Shown here in pieces: positions 114 through 18,200 of a stretch of 64,000 nt of DNA. The DNA is from Pristiophorus japonicus. Lineage: Eukaryota. Position numbers and translations under genes: made by a program. Under the pieces are notes generated by a model. It was given only the letters and a program-made list of their open reading frames with translations. It made no database searches and was not told the origin of the DNA. The DNA lies in assembly GCF_044704955.1 (NCBI RefSeq), contig NC_091994.1, forward strand, positions 47,616,001 to 47,680,000. The letters run 5' to 3'. Numbering within the stretch: the stretch's first letter is position 1; each line of letters begins with the position of its first letter.

Positions 114-1413
114 TGTAGGGGAGGATGAAAACCGGTCATTTTACCAAGAAGGAAAAGGGTTGTGGGATCGGTCTGTGCTGTGAATTGAAACCAAGACGGT
201 TTGACCTTGGCAGAGCAGTGATTGGACAGGGAAGGACACCGGAGGGCCAATGGTGGGACAGAGTCAGCCCGAAGCATGCGGCTTTCAATCCAATGGGAGA
301 GCAGTTGCTTGAAAACTGTGGGACTCATAGCCATTATCGGGCTATTGTCTTCCCCATGTTTACATTATGGAAGTAAATTATGCAGTCCTTCAGAAAACTA
401 GGGAACCCAAAACAAACCAAAGGCCTACACAATGGCTACAGGAGGCCAACCCAATTAACACCTACTCAAACCTTGAGTAGGTTAGAAAAACTGAATTGGA
501 GGAAAATTATGCAGACCTTCAGAAACCAGGGAACCCAAAACAACCCAAGGGCCTACACAATGGCTACAGGAGGCCAGCACAATCAATACCCACTCAAACC
601 TTGAGTAGGTTAACATCAGTGGAAAAAACCCGCAATAATCTAAAAGGGCTGCTTTTTCAAAATCACAAAGCCCACCAATGGGAAGAATCGATTTCAGCAG
701 GAGAGGCGGACTGGATAATCTGGCTATAAAAAGTGGTTTCTGACGTATTGTGGGTAGTTCCCTGCTCTCATGATCCAACAACCAGCAAGCCTCTCGACAC
801 TCAAGGAAAACCAGTGTCCGAAGACACCGAAGATAGAAGAAACAAACCACCAGACTGCAGAAGGCACAGTAGTGAGTATAACCTCTGGTCCCCGGAACTC
901 CCAACTCAGTTAGGCCAGGAAAGGTGGGAGGTTGGGCATTGTACTGCTAAACTTGTGTAAAGATTTTTGTTGTGTCCGTTTAGTGGGATTTGGGGGATTG
1001 TTTTGTTGGTGTATTGCTGTTTGTTGAGATACACCTTGTCAAATAAATTGGAAGCCTAAGTTCCTCTTGGAATCACCTTGTCTCAGTTATATTGTATTAC
1101 ATCTCCTGATCGTGAGTCTTATGTCAGAACAGTGTAAGGGAAGCTAGGAGTGCCTCGAAAATGCTCAACTGTGTGTCACAGGCTCGGGAAGAAGGGGTTA
1201 GGAGTGTTTGACACTCACAGGTGCCTCACAGGCTAGGCATAAGCTGTGGGGATGCACGAGTCTCAAAACCCCCTTCATAAGCTGTGGACACAGTCTCTCC
1301 AGGGGTGCTCTTGCAGCACTCAGGGTCTCTCACAGGCCAGGCATAAGCTGTGAGGGCAGAAGCCCAGAGAGAGACACCCAAGGCACAACAACACTCGCTG
1401 AGAACCCCTTACA
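114..1413 (+). repeat. Provirus 5' LTR
   Basis: TGTAGGGG...CCCCTTACA inverted termini; TATAAAA at about 725; AATAAA at about 1042; internal ~128-bp tandem duplication (about 369-612); repeated at 9545 and 29673. Confidence 0.93.
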
Positions 1414-1418
1414 GAACA

Positions 1419-1436
1419 TGGTGAACGCCGCAGGAC
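1419..1436 (+). promoter_or_regulatory. Putative primer-binding site
   Basis: TGGTGAACGCCGCAGGAC lies 5 nt after the LTR end. The cognate tRNA was not identified. Confidence 0.5.
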
Positions 1437-1492
1437 ATAAGCAAACAGGAGATGTTAATATAACAGATGAGGTGATAAGAGAGGAAACTAAA

Positions 1493-3300
1493 ATGGAGGA
1501 GAGAATTTCCTCATACATTTTTGGCAAGGTGAACCTCACCAAACCTTGGGTGCAAGCCCTCACACGGGCAGAGCGCCCAGTGGATGCTTCTGCCCAGTGG
1601 ACAGCAGGGAAGGACCACAACTGCAGGGTGGAAAAGGCCATCTGGCTTATCTGCTTCACCCGCCAAGTCCGAAAGCTCGACCAGCGGGTGAAGGACTTGG
1701 AACAGAGTCTTCAGAAATCAGAGGAGCTCTCTGCTATCCGGGCTGCGGTTGGGGACAACCTGCTGGCCGAATTAGCTGTGGAGCAGCAAGGGAAGAGGCA
1801 GTTGGAGGAGACCTTCCGAAATAGCCGGGACTATCTTCAGTGTCAGGTCACTGAGGCCAAGGGTAGTGAGGGGTCCATCTGGGAACAGAACTCTCGGTAC
1901 ACCCAGAAAATTTGGGAACCAGAGAATAAATTAAAAGACGTACAGGCAGCCTATAAAGTGGCCAGTAGCAGTGAGTTTGCAGATGACGGTCCCTGCCAGG
2001 AGAGGATTAAAACTCTCACCCATGCTCTATCCCAGGCAAAGGGAATGGATGCCCTGATAGGACCTGGAGGGTCCACAGGGGACAAAGGAGAGTATTGGGG
2101 GGTAGAGGAGAATCCAAAGGCAAGAGACGCCTGACCACCTCCTGAGGCACCGGTGGTTTGTCCGGTGGGGTACCAGGAGGAGCGGGGCTCGCAGATAGTA
2201 GCATACCCAGGGCTGGGGGCAGGACCAATGTGTCCCGCTCGGCAGCAGGGATGTGAGGCTCCCGCCGAGGGTCAGTTAAGGGCTGGATCAGGCGACTAGG
2301 CACTGTCTGCTGCACCGGGTATGGTGGGACAGCCGGAGGTAGAGGGGCCAGCGCAGAAAGATCCTGAACCAGGGCGGATGTGCCCGGTCAGGCAGCGCAA
2401 GTACGGTCCTCCACAGGGAGGTGGTCAAGGTCAGGGAGCGCTGGAGAGCTACTTTATTATTTCCCATGGAGTTCAATCACTCAGGGCTATGGTGGCCCAT
2501 TTGGCCAAAGTCACTCGCAGCGGGGACCACTTCATGGAGGTGATGCAGGCAGGGGAAATTAATGGGTGCGACGAGGAAGAGACAGCCAAGCTGCTGCTCT
2601 TCTCTCTGGACAGCAAATTGTACCAGGCCCTGCCAGCAGAATGTCGGAGGGGGCAGCGCACATTTACTGAGGTCCAGAGGGCCGTCCTTGAGGCTATGGG
2701 CTTCGATGACGGCAGTCCTTTCGAACGGGTCGAAAGGACAAGGCAGCTCGCAGGGGAAACCCCGCAGGCGTTTGCGGACAGGCTGTGGGTGGTATACCAC
2801 GCAGCCTGTGGGGAGCTCCTCGACCGGGTGAATCTTTCCGTGGTACAGACTGGCCGCTGGCTGAGGATGCTCAAGGCCAGGGCAGAACTGTGGTTCGATT
2901 CCCAGGACCCCAACCTCACCGAGGAAGCACTGGTCAGGCAACTGGCACTGGCCCAACAGAATGGAGGAGGGGAGGAGGAGAAAACCTCCAAAGGTCGGGT
3001 AAATGAAGTAAAACCCAACTCGATTCCCAAAAGGGAATGGCACCAGGAGGGCGGCTGCTCGATTGATAAGGAGGGAGTGTGCTATGGGTGTGGGAAAGCT
3101 GGGCATTTTAAAAGGGATTGCAGGAGCCCAGTAAAGAGATATGGGGGGAGAAGTCCTTTAGGAGCCGCCCAGAGTGGGGGAAGTGGAGCGAGCTCCTCAC
3201 GATCCTTGACGAGATAGTAGCTGCAGTGAGGACAGCGCTGGAGGGGACTGGGAAGGTAGCCACGGCAACAGGCAGGGAAGCACCAGCAATCCTGCCGTGA
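1493..3300 (+). pseudogene. gag: gag: N-terminal coiled coil, capsid-like region, CCHC zinc knuckle
   Basis: ORFs 1208-2134 and 2321-3217 are in one frame, broken by stops at 2132 and about 2297. CYGCGKAGHFKRDC knuckle. A frameshift near 3195 leads to TGA at 3298-3300. Confidence 0.85.
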
Positions 3301-6300
3301 CTAGCCCAGACCCAGCCTGCATACCTGTGCCCACTAGAATACGACCCCTGGGGACGACCCTGGGTCAAGATGGAGGTTGAGGGTGTATTGGGTACTTACC
3401 TTTTGGACACTGGTGCTTCCAGCACGATAGTCCATTCGGAGGACCCCGCAACCTCACCTCTATCAAACGGGGTGCCGTATCAACTAGTTGGGTTGACAGG
3501 AAATAAGAAGGCTGGGTTTTTCTCAGTCCCGCTCGCAGTTCGTTTAGGAGCATTCCAAACACAATGGAAGTGCGTCCTGATGAACTGGGAGCAGGTGGGA
3601 AAAGGGATCTTGGGGGCTGATTTCATCATTGCTCGCCAGATCCTAGTAGACTTGAGGAATCACTGTCTATGGGGCACAGTGGGCACGGGAGCAGAGGGAG
3701 AAGTCATGGTTATTGATAAGAAACAGGGAAAAGGGACTCTGTGTACAATGAAGCCAAAAGTGGGTTACGACCTGGAGGTTCTGGTTGGTAACACGCCGGC
3801 CGAGTACCGGGCCTATGTGCAAGCAAATCTTGCAGCATTTGCCACCCATAAACACGATTGTGGGAGAGTCACAGGAGTGGAGGTTAGAATAGATGGGGAT
3901 CCCATGTCCCGCCCGCAAAAGCAGTATGGCTTTCCCCGAGAGGCAGAAGCAGACTTGGAGACAGCTTTAAGCTCACTTGTCGAGCAGGGTGTTTTGAGAC
4001 CCATAGCCACCCATGTCAACTCCCCGCTTTGGCCGGTTAGGAAACCGGACAATTCTTGGAGGGCTACGGTGGATTATAGGTTGCTCAATAAAAACATCCC
4101 AGCTTGTGCTCCCACAGTAGCGGCGGTTGCGGATCTGATAGGGGAAATCCCTGCATCCGCAACCACGTTCATAGTGTTGGACATATCCAACGGGTTCTGG
4201 TCTATCTCTGTATGGAGGGAAGACCAGTACAAGTTTGCCTTCACCTTCCGGGAACAGCAGTATACATGGAGCTGCCTCCCACAGGGCTTTCATAATAGTC
4301 CCAGCATCTTTCACCAATGCATGGCGAACTGCTTAAAAGGCTTCAGCCAACCACACCAGCTGATCCAGTATGTGGACGACCTGTTGTTGTTCACAGACAG
4401 CAGTGAGGAACACGGTCCACTGCTGGCCGAACTGCTGGTCTTACTGAAGGAAGGGGGTTTTAAAGTTAACCCCAAGAAAGCCCAGATAGGTCTAGGAGAG
4501 GTAAAATTACTGGGCCTGACGATAAGGGAAGGAGAAAGGGCCATTGATGAGGCTAGAAGAAAGGCAGTGCAGGAATTCCCTGTTCCAAGGGATGTGTTGG
4601 GAGTAAGGTCTTTCCTGGGAATCACTGGCTACTGTAGGGACTTCATCGAGGACTATGCAGCCACTGCCGCCCCTCTGCTCAGACTCCTACATAAGGAGGT
4701 CGAGTGGGAATGGGGCGAGGGCTGTGAGGCAGCATTTGTCCATCTTAAGAGAGACCTGCAGGTAGCACCAGCCCTACGGGCAATTGATGGGGGGGAGGAA
4801 TTCTTCCTGGAGGTGGCAGCCAGTGGCGACAGCTTAAGTGCAGTGTTGCTCCAGGAGCGAAACGGTCAGCTGAGACCAGTGGTGTACTCCTCCAGGGTCC
4901 TCACGGAGGTAGAAAAGGGATAGTCCAATTGTGAGAGGCACTTTCTTGCCACCCATTGGGCAGTAAAGAGAGCTCAGATCTTTACCGGAATATCCCCCAT
5001 TACACTCCTCACCCATCATACCCCGTCGCAGATGCTGTTGGACGGGAGGATTAAGGACGGGACAGTAAGCAGTGCTAGAATCACTCGCTGGACCCTCCTC
5101 CTCTCTCAAATGACTTTAAAGGTCAAGGGCCTCTGCGAGCCCAGGCTCGCAGCAAATTTAATCTATCCAGGGCAGCCGCATTGATGCTCTGTGGAGGGGG
5201 TATGGGACATCAACTTTAGATTTCGTGCAGGGATACACCCCACAGGCCGCGAGATCTACGTTGATGGCTCCAGTTCAGTGTCCGCGGGTACAAGACTCAT
5301 GGGCTGCGGAGTTTGGGATCCCAAGGCAGGGATTGCCTTGGCTCTTAAACTTCCATGCACCCTGAGCGCCCAGCAGGCGGAACTCTCGGCGGTGATGTAT
5401 GTGGTCACACACCCCGAGGAATTCCCTACTCCATACACGATTTGCTCGGACAGCATGTTCACTTGCAATTCGTGTACAGCATATCTGGCGATTTGGTCAC
5501 GCCGGGGGTACACCTCTGCGGATGGGAAGCCCCTTGTGACCAAACCCCTGCTAGAAAAGATTGTGGCTGCAGTGGGAGAAAGTGGGGATGTATATATCCA
5601 TAAGGTAAAGGCCCACTCCAAAACTGAGCCACGGGGGGAAGGTAACCAGCAGGCAGACCTGCTGGCAAGTGAAGGTGCTCGTTCAGGTCGCCCATGGGAC
5701 CCATACGAGGTAGGCAGGATAACAGCAGCAAGAAGCAAGCCAGGGATACAAGGGAGCGTAGGGGCGGCTGCGGCCTCGGATCTTAAAGTAGTCCAGATGC
5801 AGGATCCGGTCCTGAAGGCTGCCTTGGCTGCTATCAAAAAGGGGGAAAAGGCGGAGGGCCCATACAGTGCTGCAGATATTGCTGTGCGGGAAGGCATGCT
5901 GTTTAAAGGGAACAAATGGATAGTGCCATCACAACACCGGAGGGAATTCCTTCAGCTGGCCCATGAGGGTCCAAGTGCGGGAAACCTGGGCCGGAATCTA
6001 CCTGGCAACAGATAGAAAAGGCAGGTTGGTGGCCAGGCCTCCAGGAAGATGTCCGCAACTTCTGTGCGGGCTGTCTGGTTTGCGCTGCAAACAACCCAGA
6101 CCCTCAGAAAAGGAAGGTGTCTATGGGACACGTCAGGCGGGTGGAGGGACCGTGGCAGTCGATCCAGATCGACTACATCGGACCCCTATCGGCCGCCCAG
6201 GGAGGTTATAAATACTGCCTCGTCCTGGTGGGTTTTCCAAGTGGGTGGAAGCCTTCCCTTGCCGAACAGCTACCACGGTGGGGACTGCAAAAATCCTGGT

Positions 6301-7066
6301 GAGGGAGGTGTTCTCTTGGTGGGGTCTACCTCAAATCGTGGAGTCCGACCGGGGAAGCCACTTCACCGGCCAGGTGATGCAGGCCACCCTAAAGGTGCTG
6401 GAGATAGGAACCAAATGGCATGTTGCCTACAATCCTCAGTCCTCAGGCCCCGTAGAACGCCTGAACTGGACCCTAAAGGAAAGGCTGCGCAAGGAGACGG
6501 GAGACTCAACGAACAAGTGGGTGGAGGTCTTACTGTTGGTCCTCATGGGAATCCGGGCCAGTCAGTTAAAGAGCACAGGGTACTCACCCCATGAGCTGAT
6601 GATGGGCCGGATCATGAGAACCTCAGTGCATGTGTTGGCGCCGGTTCTCACCGAAGGGCAGCTTCGAGAGGTGAACCGGGACCACTTCGTCAGGAATCTG
6701 TTTGAACAGCTTCAACAGATTCACTGGCAGGCGGCCAACAACATGGGTAAACAGCACCGTGCCAATCGGCTGCTGCTGGAACCCTGCAGTCACCATGATT
6801 GGGAGGTGGGCGACCAGGTGATGGTGAGAAGCTTCGCCTGGGTCGGGGTATTTGAACCACTGTATATGGGACCATACAGCATAGTCGACAAGGCTAGCCC
6901 TATGGTCTATGCGGTTCAATTGCCTCGCCGGGTGAAGTGGTATCACATTCATCAGTGTAAATTGTTTGACCCCAAAAGAGATAAAAAACAGAGGGGACGA
7001 GCAAGGGAAGGGAATCAGGCACTGGGAGAAGAACAGGCCCCGGTGGATTTGGAGGCTCCGCAGTAG
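3301..7066 (+). pseudogene. pol: pro-pol: protease, RT, tether (degenerate RNase H), RNase H, integrase
   Basis: Motifs: LLDTGAS; LDISNGF, LPQGF, YVDD; FFLEVAAS..RPVVYSSR; IYVDGS, QAELSAV, SDS, HKVKAH, GNQQAD; CAGCLVC, QIDYIGP, SDRGSHF, VERLN, GPY. Stops at 4921 and 5183; frameshifts near 5985 and 6230. An RRSNRV-type tail may extend to about 7348 through another stop. Confidence 0.93.
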
Positions 7067-7754
7067 GCAGCGGGCCCCGAAGCTCTACAGCCGGGGCTGG
7101 TTCATTGCTCCAGTAAGGCTATCCCACCACTGGGTAGAGGTTCCCAGCCCACTAACAGAAGGAGGGAGAAAGGCTCTACCATTAGCAAGGTCCAAGGGGA
7201 AGCTGAACCTCCCATGGTGGATCAGCTGGGGCTAGCCCAAGAGGTGGAGGAGATAGCATTGCAGCCCATAACGTGGGACTCTGCACCGACAGTAAGGAGG
7301 AGTAACAGAGTGCCACAGCCAGGGCGCCATGGCACACTGTTTACTTAGCTCCCCGCCCCAGACCGAGAAGGCGAAAGACAACAGGGAGGGTGCTCTGTTG
7401 CGTTAGAAAGGATCTCCCACCGATTATCCGGGGCTCGGGAGGGCCTTGGAGGGCAGCACCAGATCTATTAAGGGGGACTATACGAGCCCCTCAGCGGAGG
7501 GCATCCTAGTCCCCAGGGTACGGTCAGCTGAGTGGTCGACGACGCCTGTACAGTGACAGGATGTAGCCTGGCCACCCGGGGACGGGTGGCGGTGTATTTA
7601 TTTTGCCTTCCTGTTTTGTTACTTTGTGTTGTGTGCAGATGTGTTTAGGTAAGGCAGTGACGGTTGGGTTCAGCATTTTATGTTCGGAACATGTTAAGTG
7701 GGCCGAGCCTGGAGAGGTCTCTCAAGGCAAGACCATGTTCTTCTTGCCTTTCAG

Positions 7755-9165
7755 ATGTCAACACCTCCCTACTGGACGTTAGTGATGCTGGTATCGCTAA
7801 GGATCTGCACCGGGCACCGAGGGGACACTGAGGACTCCCTGGTTTTCGGATGCTCTGGGGGCAGAGCGCCGACAGTGACCACAGGAGAAGGGACTCCGGC
7901 GGCGGATGGCCGGGTCACCTACTCCCACGAGGGGAGATGGCCTGGGTGGTTGAGATCGAACTCCACCAAGTACTCCAACCATAAGGACTTTACCTACGGA
8001 GAGGCCTCCATCCCCTGCCCGGAGATCACTGTAGCCATTTCCAGAGTGAGAGTGACAGAAGGCAGGAAGGTGTACCTAACTTGCCAAGGGGACATACCTC
8101 TGGGACGGTGGTGGTGGCTCAGAAAGCTCAAGAGGGACGTGGGAGACCGATACTCGGACTGGGAACGTCTGGATAATGATACCTACCGAACCATCATGGT
8201 GTCATCTGGCGGGGTCACAGTGTGCGTGGAGAAATGGTGGGCATACGACCAAGGAATTTATTTGTGTATGTGGGGATCCACTCGCGTGTGTTCAGAGGGG
8301 GTCTCCATTGCTTTCTATAGGTGGTGGTCAGGATATCTGTGATGGGGGCGTCCTCAAAACCTCTGTACCAAGTGGAGAATGTGGGAGTCATTCGTGGAGG
8401 GGTGCATGTTCGATTCCAAGAGGTCCCACCTTATGTCACAATGTGGGAGCACACTGTGACAAGTACAGACCTCTCGGGATGTCGGAGCAGGGGAACACAG
8501 GTAATCCTGTGCACCCAACACTTGAACGCTTTTGCAAGGTCACAATGCGGGTTCAGCACTGCCGGGGCAGAGCCTATCAATTGCACAATGGAGGTAATGG
8601 CCCCTAACAACATGCCTCCACAGGAGCATATGTAGGCGGTGGGACATATTGTGTCACCACAAGTGCCCAACGGTATGAACACGGACCGGGAAGGTGGTGT
8701 CCAATACCGTACAGCAGCTTTTGCTTTAAACCCAGGGCAGAGGTTCAGGTGGCACACACTAGAATCACACCCATCCCTGAACCTTCCACGATTCACCTCA
8801 CGGTACAAATCAACCTCAGCTACCTACAACAATATGTCGCCCATTTTGGCTATCCCATTGCCCCACAACCTGAGAAACTTACAGCCCTCCTCCAGGCAGT
8901 GGATTTGTCTCAAAAACATTTTTACACCATGAAGCAGAAAACTGAAATTCTAGCAGGGGAGATTGCCCAGATTAAACCCCCAGCATGGTGGGATTTGGGG
9001 ATACGGGCAGACATAGCTGCGTGGATCCGGGTGGGATCGCATGCTTTAGTAATCGGCCAACTCCTGATTGTAGCATATCTGCTAGTTACAAGCTGTAAGC
9101 TCAGGAGAAAAAGAAAAAGAAAGCAGTTCCTCAGGCTACTACACAGACAGGAGAGCCATTGCTAA
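7755..9165 (+). pseudogene. env-position type I membrane protein: signal peptide, Ig-superfamily domain, F-glycoprotein-like Cys-rich region, helical stalk, TM, basic tail (two frameshifts)
   Basis: TTCTTCTTGCCTTTCAG|ATG acceptor; leader MSTPPYWTLVMLVSLRICTG; VTEGRKVYLTC..W..DQGIYLC. Frames join near 8320 and 8622. TM ALVIGQLLIVAYLLVTSC is followed by KLRRKRKRK. Confidence 0.8.
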
Positions 9166-9544: not shown

Positions 9545-10803
9545 TTTCGGGGAGGAAGGAAAAGGGCTGTGGGATCGTTCTGTGCTGTGAATTGAAACCA
9601 AGACGGTTTGACCTTGGCAGAGCAGTGATTGGACGGGGGAGGACACCGGAGGGCCAATGGTGGGACAGAGTCAGCCCAAAGCACGGGGCTTTCAAGCCAA
9701 TGGGAGAGCACTTGCTCGAAAACTGTGGGACTTATAGCCATTATCGGGCTATTGTCTTCCCCATGTTTACACTATGGAAGGAAATTATGCAGACCTTCAG
9801 AAAACTAGGGAACCCAAAACAAACCAAGGGTCTACACAATGGCTACAGGAGGCCAACCCAATTAACACCTACTCAAACCTTGAGTAGGTTAGAAAAACTG
9901 AATTGGAGGAAAATTATGCAGACCTTCAGAAACCAGGGAACCCAAAACAACCCAAGGGCCTACACAATGGCTACAGGAGGCCAACGCAATCAATACCCAC
10001 TCAAACCTTGAGTAGGTTAACATCAGTGGAAAAAACCCGCAATAATCTAAAACGGCTGCATTTTTCAAAATCACGAAGCCCACCAATGGGAAGAATCGAT
10101 TTTAGCAGGAGAGGCGGACTAGATAATCTGGCTATAAAAAGGGGTTTCTGATGTAGTGTGGGTGGTTCCCTGCTCTTGTGATCCAACAACCAGCAAGCCT
10201 CTCGACACTGAAGGAAAACCAGTGTCCGAAGACACCGAAGATAGAAGAAACAAACCACCAGACTTGCAGAAGGCACAGTAGTGAGTATAACCTCTGGTCC
10301 CCGGAACTCCCAACTCAGTTAGGTCAGGAAAGGTGGGAGGTTGGGCATTGTACTGCTGAACTTGTGTAAAGATTTTCGTTGTGTCCGTTTAGTGGGATTT
10401 AGGGGCATTGTTTTGTTGGTGTATTGCTGTTTGTTGAGATACACCTTGTCAAATAAATTGGAAGCCTAAGTTCCTCTTGGAATCACCTTGTCTCAGTTCT
10501 ATTGTATTACATCTCCTGATCGTGAGTCTTATGTCAGAACAGTGTAAGGGAAGCTAGGAGTGCCTCGCAAATGCTCAACTGTGTGTCACAGGTTAGGGAA
10601 GAAGGGGTTAGGAGTGTTTGACACTCATAGGTGCCTCACAGGCTAGGCATAAGCTGTGGGGACGCACGAGTCTCAAAACCCCCTTCATAAGCTGTGGACA
10701 GAGTCTCTCCAGGGGTGCTCTTGCAGCACTCAGGGTCTCTCACAGGCCAGGCATAAGCTGTGAGGGCAAAAGCCCAGAGAGAGACACCCAAGGCACAACA
10801 ACA
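9545..10803 (+). repeat. Provirus 3' LTR (both ends damaged), preceded by a short purine tract AGATGGGGGA
   Basis: Direct repeat of 114-1393, with about 14 mismatches in the first ~245 aligned nt by hand count. About 25 bp are deleted near the start and the last ~20 bp are missing. Confidence 0.92.
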
Positions 10804-13693
10804 GATGATGTCAACGCCCATCTCTGGATACGGGATGATGCATTGGTATTAATATCTTTGTTTTCCGAAAACAATGAAATGAGTGGCTTGTGATCCGTTT
10901 CGATCTCAAAATGAAGACCAAACAGGTACTGATGCATCTTTTTGACCCCATAACAACAGGCCAAAGCTTCTTTTTCTATCATGCTGTAAGCTCTTTCCGC
11001 CTTTGACAAACTTCTCGAAGCATACGCAACAGGTTGTAGCTTACCCGACTCATTTGCTTGTTGGAGTACACATCCAACCCCATATGATGAAGCAGCACAG
11101 GCCAATACAGATGCTTACACGGATCATAATGAACAAGCAACTTGTTTGAACAGAGCAGATTCTTAGCTTTCTCAAAGACTCTATCTTGAGACACACCCCA
11201 GACCCAGATGTTGCCTTTTCTGAGTAGCATATGTAGTGGCTCTAATAAAGTGCTCAATTTGGTTAAGAAATCACCGAAGTAGTTGAGTAGCCCAAGGAAT
11301 GAACGCAGCTCTGTCACATTCTGAGGCCTGGATGCATTTTTGATGGCCTTAGTTTTCAAATCAGCAGGCCTGATGCCATCAGCAGCAATCTTCCTCCCCA
11401 GGAATTCAACTTCAGATACCATGAAGACACACTTCGAACATTTCAGCCTGAGTCCCACTTTGTCCAGACAATGTAGGACTTCTTCAAGATTGTTCAGATG
11501 TTCAGCAATGTCACGACCTGTGACCAGAATGTCATTTTGAAACACGACAGTTCTAGGAACAGACTTCAGTAGACTCTGCATATTCCTCTGAAATATGGCT
11601 GCAGCTGAACGAATTCCAAAAGAACACCTGTTGTAGACAAACAGTCCTTTATGGGTGTTGATGCAGGTGAGTTTCTTCGAAGTGCCGACAAGCTCCTGTG
11701 TCATATAGGCCGATGTCAGATCTAGTTTAGTGAATGACCTGCCACCAGCTAGCATGGCGAACAGGTCATCAGCTTTCAGTAACGGATACTGATCCTGTTT
11801 CGAAAATCAGTTAATCGTAACCTTGTAGTCACCACAAATCCTGACAGTGACATCAATCTTCAACACAGTAACAATGGGGCTGGCCCACTCGTTAAACTCG
11901 ACCGGTGATATGATCCCTTCTCGTTGGAGTCTGTCAAGCTCAATTTTAACCTTCTCCCTCATCATGGAAGGAACAGACCGAGCTTTATGATAGACAGGCT
12001 TTGCATCAGAATCTAGGTGAACCTGCACCTTGGCGCCAGGAAAATTACCAATGCCCGGTTCAAACAAAGAAGGAAACTTCTTCAACACTTGAGCACATGA
12101 AGTGTCATTCATCGAGGACAATGCTTTGACATCATTCCAGTTCCACTTGATTTTCTCAAGCCAATTCCTACCGAACAGCGTTCGGATAAACACCTGGGAT
12201 GATCCATAATGGTAGATCATGAACCACGCCATCATATGACACCTTGACTACTATACTGCCAATCACCGGTATGAGTTCCTTAGTCTAAGTACGCAACTTG
12301 GCATTGACTGGACTCAGCTTAGGCTTCACAGCCTCAGTGTCCCACAGCTTGTTGAATGCCCTTTGGCTCATTATCGACTGACTCACACCTGTCAGCGTCA
12401 CATTAACGATTATTGGCTGGCTCTTTCCCAAGAACGAATACAGACCATACACTTCCTCACCGGCTTGTGTATCCGGGCCAGCACTGGACTGATCATCATC
12501 AAAAATGTGATGAGTGGCAGCACGGTTGTTCAGTTGTGGGCACATTCTCTGAAGATGCCCCACTTTCGAACAGCCATTACAGGCGGTATTGTTTAAACCA
12601 ACACTGATGAGGCCGATGATTGCCCCCACAATGCCAACAGGGTGAAATCAGATTCGTACCAGTTGGTGGACTCTGAGCAGCTATAGGTTTCACATAAGCA
12701 ATCGAGTAGGCCTTTCCATGAGCAGGTCTGCCAGAAGACGACACAATCTTGTTTACAGTAGCTGTCGTGGAGCTCCGATTCTTCGTTGATATCTGCCTCA
12801 AGCTATCATCAGATATCATGCATGCCTGGGCAGTCGCGATGGCCTTTCTCAAATCCAGCTTCTCTTTGGCCAAAAACTTCCGAAGAATCACATTATGGTT
12901 GATGCCTATCACGAAGAAATCTCGCAACATGTCTTCCAACACGTTCCCGAACTTACGCGGCTCAGCAAGACGTCATAGGTCGGCGATGAATCCCGACACA
13001 GCCTGATCCTCAGCACAAACATGTGTATAGAAGCAATAGTGTGAGATGATGATCCCCTCTTTTGGCTTACAAAATCCTCGAAGCATACGCAACAGGTTGT
13101 TGCTTACCCGACTCATTTCCTTGTTGGAGTACACATCCAACCCCATATGATGAAGCAGCACAGGCCAATACAAGATGCTTCCACGGATCATAATGAACAA
13201 GCAACTTGTTTGAACAGAGCAGATTCTTAGCTTTCTCAAAGACTCATACTCTTTGTCCATTGGACGTAAAGGCGAGAGAAGATTCTTCATAAGGCTGTAA
13301 ATTTTCGGATGACAAATGGTGAGGAAAACCGCCATGCGCCTAATTGCATCAGCCTCTCCCTCCATTTTGTTGGCCACAAAACACTGATCCAGGCGGTCGA
13401 TAAAATCCGCTCAATCCTCGCTCTCCGCAAATCTCTCCAGAATTCCAGTAGTGCCCATTGTACATGCGAAGGTTCTTAAGTTACCTCGCCGCCAAATGTA
13501 ATGTCTCAAGAGCCTTGTTACTGTAATCGGCCTCAGGCGTATTCCTGATCCAACTTTATTTGCGCTCAAAGTACCTGCGTGACATAGTACCCGCTCTTAT
13601 ATATCAGTGACCGCACACACGCGCGTACAGCCCGATGACCTCCGACACTGGCGCCCCCTGGTGTCTGGTGACCCCAAGCATCAATACATAACA
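10804..13693 (-). mobile_element. Gypsy element A copy 1 (Mag-like): 5' LTR 13497-13693, gag, protease, RT, RNase H; decayed
   Basis: FTKLDLTSAY, ELRSFLGLLNY, QPVAYASRSL, EKEALA, TDHKPL. PBS TGGCGGCGAGG (tRNA-Ser-like). LTR has TG..CA ends. Confidence 0.92.
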
Positions 13694-15245: not shown

Positions 15246-18200
15246 TGTTACACTCATAATAAATGGTCAGACTGAGTACTGTGTATAATGAGCAAGTGTG
15301 ACCTTAGCTCCTTTATTAAGATTCCAGAGTGCAGGTACCTCGTGGGTGGCCTGCTTATATACTTGGCTCCCAAGGGATGCTGGGATTCCTTGGGACTCCA
15401 ACAGGTAGGCCCTCTGGTGGTCAGGTGTGATGCAAGTTGCAAGGGGTTAAATACATAATATCACTCCCCCGTGAAGTCAACAGTACACTTATTTACAAGG
15501 TGAGACGATCTGGGGCTTTGCGGTCCCTTGTCGATCGTCTCGGTACAAATGCTGGTGTGGGTGGGTTGGTCAGTTCTTCACTGGGCTGTTGAGTTGCCAG
15601 CCTTGCCGGGCTGCTGGGGATGGTGAGTTCGATTTCGTGGTCAACTATGATGTCAGTTGCCACTTGTGTGTATGTGTGTGTGTGTTGGAGTGTAAAGTTG
15701 GTGGTATCTTCTTCAGGTTGTTCGTAGCTGTTGGTGAACCTCAATTTGATTTGGTCCAATTGTTTTCTGTGCGTTTGTCCATTGGTCAGTTTGACCTGAA
15801 ACACCACTCTTTGGCTGTGACCGTGCCAGCGAGTCATTTGGGACCATGTCCATTATTGAACACAAACACAGGATCATTGATCTCAATATCGCGTGACATT
15901 TTTGCGCAGTCATGGTACACACTTTGTTGATGCCGCTTGATCATGGAGATCAGGGTGGATATGACAGAGCCTTGTTTTAAGCGCTCTTTTCATGAGCAGC
16001 TCAGCTGGGGGAATGATGGTGAGTGAGTCGGGTCTGGTGCAATAGCTGAGCAGTACTCGGGACAACCGGGTCTGCAGGGAGTCTTCCGACACGCGTTTCA
16101 AGCTCTGCTTGATGGTCTCAACTACCCGTTCTGCATGGCCATTTGGTGCGGGCTTGAACGGGGCAGGTGTGAAATGTTTGATCCGGTTGCGTGTCATGAA
16201 TTCCTTGAATTCAACACTGGTGAAGCACGGCCCATTGTCGCTGACACGGACATCAGGCAAGCCGTGCTTGGCAAACATGGCTCGTAGGCTTTCAATGGTG
16301 GCTTTGGAAGTGCTTACAGACATTATTGCACATTCAATCCATTTTGAATAAGCGTCCACGACAACCAAAAACATTTTGCCTAGGAATGGGCCCGCATAGT
16401 CGACATGCATCCTCGACCACGGTTTGGATGGCCATGACCACAAACTTAGCAGTGCCTCTCTGGGTGCATTGCTCAACTGAGAGCAAGTGTTGCAGTGGCG
16501 CATGCATGACTCTAAATCTGAGTCGATGCAAGGCCACCACACGTGGGGTCTGGCTATGGCTTTCATCATTATGATGCCTGGGTGGGTGTTGTGCAGTTCG
16601 CAAATAAATGTCTCTCTGCCTTTCTTGGGCAAGACTACGCGATTGCCCCACAAAAGACAATCCACCTGCAGGAACAACTCGTCTTTGCATCTGTAGAATG
16701 GCTTAATCACTTCCTGCATCTCCACTGGGACACTGGACCAGCTCCCATGGAGGACACAGATTTGTACAAAAGACAGTAAAGGATCCTGGCTGGTCCAGGT
16801 CCTGATCTAGTGGGCCATAATGACGGACTTCTCGTTCTCAAATGCCTCCATGACCATGAGCAAGTCTGCTGGCTGTGAATTTTCCACCCCGGTGGTGGGC
16901 AATGGTAGCCGACTGAGAGCTTCTGCGCAGTTCTCTGTGCCCGGTCTGCGGCGGATTACATAGTTGTATGCCGACAGCATGAGTGCCCATCTTTGGATGC
17001 GAGCAGGGACATTGGTATTAATCCCTTTGCTCTCCGAGAATAGCGATATGAGCGGCTTGTGGTCAGTTTCGAGCTCAAATTTGCAGCCAAATAAGTACTG
17101 GTGCATTTTTTTTACCCCGTAAGCACACGCCACAGCCTCTTTTTCAACCCTTTTGGTCTTGGACAAACTCCTGGATGCAGACACAACCGTTTGCAAAATT
17201 CCCGATTCATTAGTCTGTTGTAACACACACCCGACCCCATATGACGACGCATCGCAAGCTAACACTAATCGTTTACATGGGTTATACAGGACAAGCAGTT
17301 TATTAGAACATAATATGTTTCTGGCTTTCTTAAAGGCAGCCTCTTGTGAATTCCCCCATACCCAGTCGTCTCCCTTGCGCAGTAGCGCATGTAGGGGTTC
17401 TAGCAGGGTGCTTAACCCAGGTAGGTAATTACTGAAATAGTTAAGGAGCCCCAGGAACGACCGCAGCTCCATCACATTCTGTGGTCGCGGTGCGTTTTTG
17501 ATGGCCTCCATCTTGGCGTTGGTGGGTCCGATGCTGTCTGCTGCGATTCTCCTTCCTAAGAATTCGACGCCCTGTGCCAGGAAAACACACTTCGAGCGTT
17601 TCAACCTGAGCCCCATGCGATCCAACCGACTAAGAACCTCCTCCAGATTCTTCAAGTGCTCCATGGCGTCCCGACCTGTAACCAATATTTCGTCCTGGAA
17701 GACCACTGTGCAAGAAACCGACTGTAGCAGGCTTTCCATGTTCCGCTGGAAGATCGCTGCGGCCGACCGAATCCCGAACGGGCACCGGTTGTAGATAAAC
17801 AGACCTTTGTGTGTGTTGATGTAGGTGATGCTTTCAAAGACTCCTCCAGCTCCTGCGTCATGAAGGCCGAGGTCTGGTCCAGCTTGGTGAATGTCTTCCC
17901 TCCAACCAGGGTCGCAAATAGGTCATCTGCCTTGGGTAGTGGGTACTGGTCCTGCAGCGAAAAATGGTTAATCGTTACTTTGTAGTCCATGCAAATTTTA
18001 ACCGTACTGTCCTCCTTGAGTACCGGAACAATCGGACTGGCCCAGTCATTGAATTCCACTGGCGCGATGATGCCTTCACGTTGCAGCCTGTCCAGCACGA
18101 TTTCCACTTTTTCACGCATCATGTACGGTACCGCACGAGCCTTGTGGTGATTGGGTCGCGTACCGGGAACCAAATGGATGTGCACTTTCGCTCTCGAAAA

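Follow-up and report, generated by a model that had tools for sequence, protein, structure and literature searches.

A retroviral envelope with a predicted F-type core and a predicted immunoglobulin-like head in Pristiophorus japonicus, and the deletion that disguises it

Background

The window analysed here, a stretch of 64,000 nucleotides from Pristiophorus japonicus (NCBI RefSeq assembly GCF_044704955.1, contig NC_091994.1, positions 47,616,001 to 47,680,000 of the forward strand), contains at 7755-9165 an env region that lies within an LTR provirus of a multicopy family. A preliminary description had joined this region across two presumed frameshifts into a single membrane protein of about 470 residues, in which an immunoglobulin (Ig) domain sits in place of the fusion peptide and HR-A of an F-like glycoprotein. 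The locus thus raises the question of whether a retroelement displays an Ig domain on a viral stalk that has no fusion machinery, or whether this copy is the damaged form of a different envelope. We find that the chimera without a fusion peptide is a deletion artefact. Very probably, the provirus in the window is a dead one in which 916 bases of env were deleted at a short direct repeat. Undeleted copies of the gene very probably encode a predicted fusogen of the paramyxovirus F type, and its predicted Ig-like head is likely the part that binds a cell receptor.

Proviral context and the pieces of the window env

The features of the provirus are as follows (coordinates are those of the window).

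114..1418, + strand: 5' LTR, starting with TG; its start was set by the 3' LTRs of other copies
within 114..1418, + strand: internal repeat of the 5' LTR, 128 bases (D3/D11)
1419..1436, + strand: decayed primer-binding site of the tRNA-Arg(TCG) type, found also in three other copies
1202..3217, + strand: gag, broken and in two frames, with a helical N-terminal part and a CCHC knuckle (from open reading frames; zf-CCHC, E=8e-5)
3301..7066, + strand: pro-pol, broken, with protease, reverse transcriptase (RT; LPQG, YVDD), tether-type RH, second RNase H and integrase
7738..7754, + strand: predicted splice acceptor immediately 5' of the env ATG, a pyrimidine run and AG, the same in the other copies compared
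7755..8342, + strand: env 5' remnant, with predicted signal peptide, N-terminal segment, Ig-like head and stop (195 aa)
8025..8324, + strand: predicted Ig-like head (V/I-set type), with Cys codons at 8082 and 8265
8321..8327, + strand: junction of the 916-base deletion, inside a 7-base direct repeat
8321..9165, + strand: env 3' remnant, with Cys-rich F1 half, HR-B stalk, TM and basic tail, and a second break near 8620
9031..9096, + strand: predicted transmembrane segment (hydropathy; helix in the model)
9545..10803, + strand: 3' LTR, with altered 5' edge and a 3' end about 25 bases short

The two LTRs are 96.5% alike across 1249 bases (5' versus 3'), and no target-site duplication is readable for the window provirus. 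The end of the 3' LTR is truncated by an unrelated Gypsy-like RT/RNase H element on the minus strand (10804-13410), a second copy of which, about 70% alike, lies at approximately 16985-17824. The Pfam domains recognised in pro-pol are RVP, RVT_1, RT_RNaseH_2, RNase_H and rve. In several other copies the integrase frame extends over about 436 codons (window 6256-7563) and ends in a long C-terminal tail; the frame of the window stops short of this tail, at 7066. Both gag and pol are interrupted by stops and frame changes, and the window provirus is therefore dead. The nearest named proteins are from sawshark (69-93%) and skate (52%), in keeping with a cartilaginous-fish host.

The window env consists of three pieces in three frames (7698-8342, 8321-8635 and 8608-9165), and these, together with the Cys codons 61 residues apart at 8082 and 8265 and the motifs WWW and DQGIYLC, are just as first described. 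The furin site, fusion peptide and HR-A are all missing, having gone with the 916-base deletion, and their reported absence is borne out for this copy. The two breaks, which had been taken for simple frameshifts of one 470-residue gene, turn out to differ in kind: the one near 8620 is indeed a small frame error, a one-base gap, whereas the one near 8320 is the deletion junction. As this junction is out of frame, the 5' remnant ends in a stop after 195 residues. Among 29 other loci the one-base gap is shared only by L002 (G000:C18:47577705), which lies 46 kb upstream of the window copy and has the same large deletion; the two are likely the outcome of a local duplication after insertion. A pair that resembles them, L027 and L028, lies 8 kb apart.

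An out-of-frame deletion in many env copies

A search of the same genome with the window env yielded 42 matches, from the best 40 of 3166 candidates scored. The frame change near 8320 is the same as that of the window in 27 of the 30 loci fetched, which are the best matches to a query that itself carries the deletion. Nine loci with partial matches were fetched whole: six match the window up to 8347, continue with about 900 extra bases and resume at 8321, two have another deletion and one is without the 5' part. Compared with an undeleted copy, the window env lacks 916 bases, which code for a Pro/Thr linker, F2, the furin site, the fusion-peptide position, HR-A and the start of F1. Exact junction motifs in the genome number 473 for the undeleted and 31 for the deleted form, with none for the reversed controls; all 11 further matches to the deleted motif that were fetched are true deletions, and at least 38 loci carry the deletion form. 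Judging by these motif counts, most copies carry the very elements, fusion peptide and HR-A, that the Ig domain was said to replace.

If the 470-residue Ig-on-stalk protein were a real and selected product, acting as an adhesin or decoy, the spread of the deletion form over this many loci and exact motif matches would be in keeping with it, as would one copy (L106) in which Ig and F1 motifs share a single stop-free frame. In L106, however, the frame that begins at the ATG closes after 40 codons, and none of the 38 deletion copies examined has a frame that starts at the env ATG and continues past the junction as far as the F part. Three copies with two more bases at the junction were considered as in-frame rescues and rejected, as they are 914-base deletions at the same repeat that are likewise out of frame. 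Hence the 470-residue protein is present in no copy examined. Moreover, the deletion copies have diverged to the same extent as evenly picked undeleted copies (2.8% versus 2.9%), and they have no private variants in common. Given in addition the undeleted majority, which refutes it, a selected product of this kind is exceedingly improbable.

A different proposal would have the deletion copies kept for a secreted 195-residue head, which would block the receptor against infection. Soluble Env-derived restriction factors are known, and the out-of-frame junction leaves a signal peptide and head followed by a stop; in the window copy, and in 15 of 38 deletion copies, the reading frame runs uninterrupted through the head. 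However, the same is true of 7 of 20 undeleted copies, so that the deletion copies show no excess, and neither gag nor pol of the window provirus is intact. We regard such a decoy as very unlikely; the window copy could supply at most a 195-residue secreted head fragment, and it gives no sign of being kept for it.

As to the origin of the deletion, the deletion copies do not stand out as one clade, their tree being star-like and private variants lacking, and they may have a single or a recurrent origin. Splicing was rejected as the source of the junction: the flank looks like an acceptor but is coding in undeleted copies, and the lost segment ends in AG at no register of the repeat. Contigs of four runs, whose kind is unrecorded and which have no bearing on expression, cover the undeleted region and contain no joint at the deletion. 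The deletion likely arose through template switching in reverse transcription or through microhomology repair, probably on two or more occasions, given losses of 916 and of 914 bases. L036 and L039 (G000:C11 and C13) share a different env deletion, also recurrent, which took out 639 bases at another short repeat; in these the head, the linker and most of F2 are gone, and the cleavage site and F1 are kept.

The undeleted Env and its predicted fold

The undeleted env encodes a protein of 777 residues, predicted to comprise, from the N terminus, a signal peptide, the Ig-like head, a Pro/Thr linker, F2, an R-Q-K/R-R site, the fusion-peptide position, HR-A, a Cys-rich F1, HR-B, a TM and a basic tail. 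Uninterrupted frames of 772-778 codons are present in 11 of 35 loci picked by similarity, which are a biased set, and in 3 of 20 undeleted loci picked evenly, at regular intervals among the first 100 undeleted-motif matches listed; left out of the counts were L027-L029 and L038 (end anchor missing), L041 (the same place as L037) and L040 (flank). Among these 20 the R-x-K/R-R site is kept in 17 copies, mutated in one and not matched in two, and the stretch of site and peptide is visible in 18. The preliminary description had itself recognised that a normal fusion peptide or HR-A in other copies would speak against its chimera.

As ruler and fold query we used L043, a natural uninterrupted copy. 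It contains a predicted signal peptide, a 70-residue segment, the Ig-like head (91-190), the Pro/Thr linker, F2 from residue 246, and RQRR at 327-330 followed by a Gly/Thr/Ala-rich peptide and long helices (333-374 and 382-444). The fusion-peptide position is weakly hydrophobic, with no window above 1.2, and residues 728-758, the predicted TM, are the sole hydropathy peak above this value in the uninterrupted Env. A search of the own genome for more distant subfamilies, with 24,136 first-look candidates, recovered loci L071-L082, which at 55-70% protein identity have the same Ig-headed Env. Several annotated proteins (P0003, P0013, P0016 and P0036) have env fragments fused to Niban, zinc fingers, cadherin and F-box; these are probably gene-model artefacts, and possibly cases of exonisation.

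By sequence, the Env gave no match to Pfam Fusion_gly (PF00523), and no F protein was found in PDB sequence searches. Folded as a single sequence it has a mean pLDDT of 34; with 44 aligned natural sequences the model of L043 reaches a mean of 62, with the β core mostly at 80-96 and the head (residues 91-180) at 33-68. The top Foldseek matches of this model are paramyxo- and pneumovirus F proteins (hPIV3 F, E=1.3e-10; RSV F, 2.3e-10), although whole-model TM-scores to F are low, at 0.2-0.3, and the conformation of the model is mixed. VIA-align with residues 246-714 retrieves NDV F (Z 11.4, rmsd 16.7, 326 aligned) and foamy virus Env (Z 8.8), and in the Atlas residues 245-777 fall with Baculo_F and Fusion_gly clusters (0.93-0.94). 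Taken together, an F fold is well supported by the model for residues 246-661, and the F-like reading of the Cys-rich C-terminal half, stalk, TM and basic tail, for which a structure search had been proposed, is upheld on an uninterrupted copy.

The BFVD search with the same model also returned the Envs of walleye epidermal hyperplasia virus 1 (E=4.6e-10) and walleye dermal sarcoma virus (3.1e-7), both at a low TM-score of 0.14-0.24. These matches may mean that the Env of epsilonretroviruses is also F-type, or they may be due to long helices.

The Ig-like head: conservation, origin and likely role

The V/I-set pattern comprises a B-strand Cys, a C-strand Trp and an F-strand D-x-G-x-Y-x-C, with the Cys residues 55-75 apart. 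The head conforms to this with C110, W119-121 and DQGIYLC171, which are kept in most of the subfamily and skate rows. The first env piece matches Pfam Ig_3 at E=4e-4, which is below the curated cut-off, and the best PDB sequence match to the head is CRTAM at a non-significant E=0.11-0.55. On the model, residues 35-177 align with V-type Ig domains in VIA-align (Z 6.4-7.0, rmsd 2.1-2.8, about 80 residues aligned, pLDDT 33-68), a Z of 7 being within the range of a common arrangement, and Atlas associates the head with V/I-set clusters (0.90-0.92). The Ig-like nature of the N-terminal part, as proposed at the outset, is thus moderately supported by pattern and model.

Identity of the head from one subfamily to another is 62-64%, and pN is 0.21-0.23 versus a pS of 0.65-0.81. 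Its dN/dS, which had been suggested as a check, is 0.16-0.17 in two of four pairs (the other pairs are saturated); the corresponding values are 0.08-0.15 for the core and 0.22-0.37 for the linker, which places the head with the core and below the linker. The head is under purifying selection. The Ig segment extends well beyond the window copy, being present in most copies of the own genome and in skate proteins at 52%. Its conservation across subfamilies and in the skate indicates that it is part of the normal fusogen of the replicating virus. The search for the closest host IgSF donor, which might have backed the suggested capture of a host domain, led nowhere: among the best 150 of 6597 candidates scored in the own genome only proviral-type copies were found, and there is no host IgSF protein among the 51 matches of a profile search described below.

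In gamma-type Envs the IgV head is followed by a proline-rich hinge. By analogy with such envelopes, the sawshark head is likely a receptor-binding domain, which is one of the roles suggested in the preliminary description. It might alternatively be a shield or an immune-modulating module, with attachment left to the F core or to glycans: 22 of the 23 published lokiretrovirus Envs, as given in the accessible part of PMC7947760, are without any head, L036 and L039 have lost theirs along with the linker and most of F2, and CRTAM, which is an immune receptor, is the best though not significant PDB match. Against this, class Ib cores accept receptor-binding modules N-terminally or as inserts (PMC11468914, in the portion available), gamma-type Envs use an IgV head with a proline-rich hinge to bind their receptors, and the head is conserved like the core and not diversifying. 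We therefore consider a shield or immune module rather unlikely, if still deserving of attention, and prefer the receptor-binding role.

Under this preferred role, the Env would be expressed from a spliced mRNA and would form a trimer, as in class Ib fusogens generally. Furin would cut after residue 330 to give SU (head, linker and F2) and TM (F1), and the head, carried on its Pro/Thr hinge, would bind a surface protein of the target cell. Following receptor binding, HR-A would extend, the peptide would insert, and formation of the six-helix bundle would fuse the membranes.

Affinities of the element and comparison with known envelopes

The preliminary description had linked the element to lokiretroviruses, which is probably wrong, as its RT motifs are SnRV-like. 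The RT motif of the window is LPQGFHNSPSIF, of the LPQG type, and in one 47-residue RT block compared by eye 35 of 47 positions are identical to SnRV versus 23 of 47 to Loki-Bsp. In an RT tree of 66 rows, which omits matches covering fewer than 170 columns and contains no named SnRV sequence, the window RT groups with coelacanth and other RTs (96/90). A further branch (99/92) unites it with gamma- and epsilon-like elements and leaves outside the loki-type P0090, which matches the Loki-Aro motif. The main ERVs of the coelacanth are SnRV-like. The primer of SnRV is tRNA-Arg, and the tRNA-Arg primer site of the window element agrees with this, which is a weak criterion; the complement of the form of this site in L036 occurs at 13 genomic places, and ARAGORN calls tRNA-Arg(tcg) for one of the three fetched. 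In addition to RT and RNase H motifs that by eye resemble those of SnRV (snakehead retrovirus), the element has in common with SnRV-like viruses the gag-pro-pol-env order, the tether and second RNase H, and an aquatic host. Judging from these sequence features, it is most probably an SnRV-like retrovirus. SnRV-like ERVs of elephant shark (CmiERV lineage I) are described in the available portions of PMC4422223 and PMC4977317; in the literature searched, subscription papers aside, we found no description of an F-type or Ig-headed Env in the SnRV-like group.

Lokiretroviruses are known to have an F-type Env (PMC7947760, in the part accessible), and the sawshark Env resembles it in its signal, RXKR-type site, fusion peptide, coiled coil, TM and likeness to paramyxo/pneumovirus F, and also in the G-P-x-x-G-(I/L)-V-L at the start of F2. 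An extension of the lokiretrovirus lineage to cartilaginous fishes would accordingly fit this Env and the dual RNase H, and an AU test with 34 rows, including a single loki-type row, did not reject a tree in which that row and the window RT are held together (p=0.085). However, the dual RNase H is common to all retroviruses and is hence not diagnostic. The loki RTs in the available part of the supplement read P-F-G-(Y/L)-x-N-S-P-A-(E/D)-F-N-I, the PFG-NSPAEFNI type, as opposed by eye to the LPQG type of the window, and the window RT is 37% identical to P0090 versus 46-62% to its tree neighbours. The CCHC knuckle in gag and the tRNA-Arg type primer also speak against this placement. In those 22 published loki Envs the F2 motif follows the signal peptide directly (the remaining one is truncated), whereas in the sawshark Env it is preceded by about 220 residues that include the Ig head; the word "immunoglobulin" has no matches in the accessible part of the supplement (PMC7947760). 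The same source, as far as available, found lokiretroviruses absent from all three cartilaginous fish genomes screened. Membership in the lokiretroviruses is thus unlikely, and we retain the SnRV-like assignment.

An F-type Env is also known in foamy viruses (PMC11468914, in the part available). On the model, the sawshark Env appears to have the same core fold as foamy virus Env and paramyxo/pneumovirus F (Z 8.2-11.4), and it is like the foamy Env in having a modular receptor-binding part added to the core. In the foamy Env, as described in that part of the source, this domain is a non-Ig insert on the N-terminal side of the furin site, with a leader peptide in addition; paramyxo/pneumovirus F contains no receptor-binding domain, while the head of the sawshark Env is N-terminal and Ig-like. 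Conversely, an N-terminal IgV-like domain on SU is described, in the accessible text, for gamma-type Envs (MLV, FeLV, HERV-Pb1) and for Env-Dbi, whose receptor-binding domain was captured from a host SIRP gene (bioRxiv 10.1101/2024.03.17.585361); the canonical B-F disulfide of Env-Dbi is predicted for the sawshark head as well. These heads, however, sit on an orthoretroviral gamma-type core, and Env-Dbi has a clear host donor, in contrast to the head of the sawshark Env, for which none is detectable. A literature search outside subscription papers and bioRxiv supplements found no Ig-headed F-type retroviral Env. The original claim of an undescribed architecture hence holds, within that search, for an F-type Env, and fails for the IgV head as such, which was already described on gamma-type Env.

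Searched with a profile, 1.84 billion representatives yielded 51 matches, among them full-length Envs of bamboo shark and frogs, which share the core (E=2e-39, residues 235-762). Their heads of 140-190 residues yielded no profile alignment with the sawshark head; the profile match covers residues 235-762 only. Ig-like motifs are seen by eye before F2 in P0018, P0023, P0037, P0050 and P0054 (bamboo shark, three frogs and one further contig). The head of P0037 matches V-set at E=0.045, and P0018 has an automatic UniRef name and antibody matches at E of 0.05-0.9, all of which are weak; PDB sequence searches with these two gave nothing significant. The related shark Envs P0017, P0031 and P0038 have a different, Cys-rich N-terminal module instead of the Ig head.

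Implications

What is new here is the Ig-like head on an F-type Env; F-type retroviral Envs, and IgV heads on gamma-type Envs, were known. In a lineage that is probably distinct from both lokiretroviruses and foamy viruses, a natural and abundant retroviral Env carries a predicted Ig-like head on a predicted paramyxovirus-F-type core, which extends the range of class Ib fusogens among retroviruses. For first-pass readings of such loci it is a caution that an out-of-frame junction in a multicopy element can represent a large deletion. The head also provides a small, separable domain with which to seek the receptor of a basal fish retrovirus.

The finding further bears on the origin of retroviral Envs, for which four scenarios are left open in the available part of PMC7947760. 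As a tentative proposal, which we put forward with less than even confidence, sharks, skates and frogs might harbour a large SnRV-like lineage that as a rule enters cells by means of an Ig-headed F-type Env, the heads of which have been repeatedly captured or swapped on a conserved core. Together with the foamy, loki and possibly epsilonretrovirus Envs, this might point to an F-type core with a replaceable head as the ancestral retroviral envelope.
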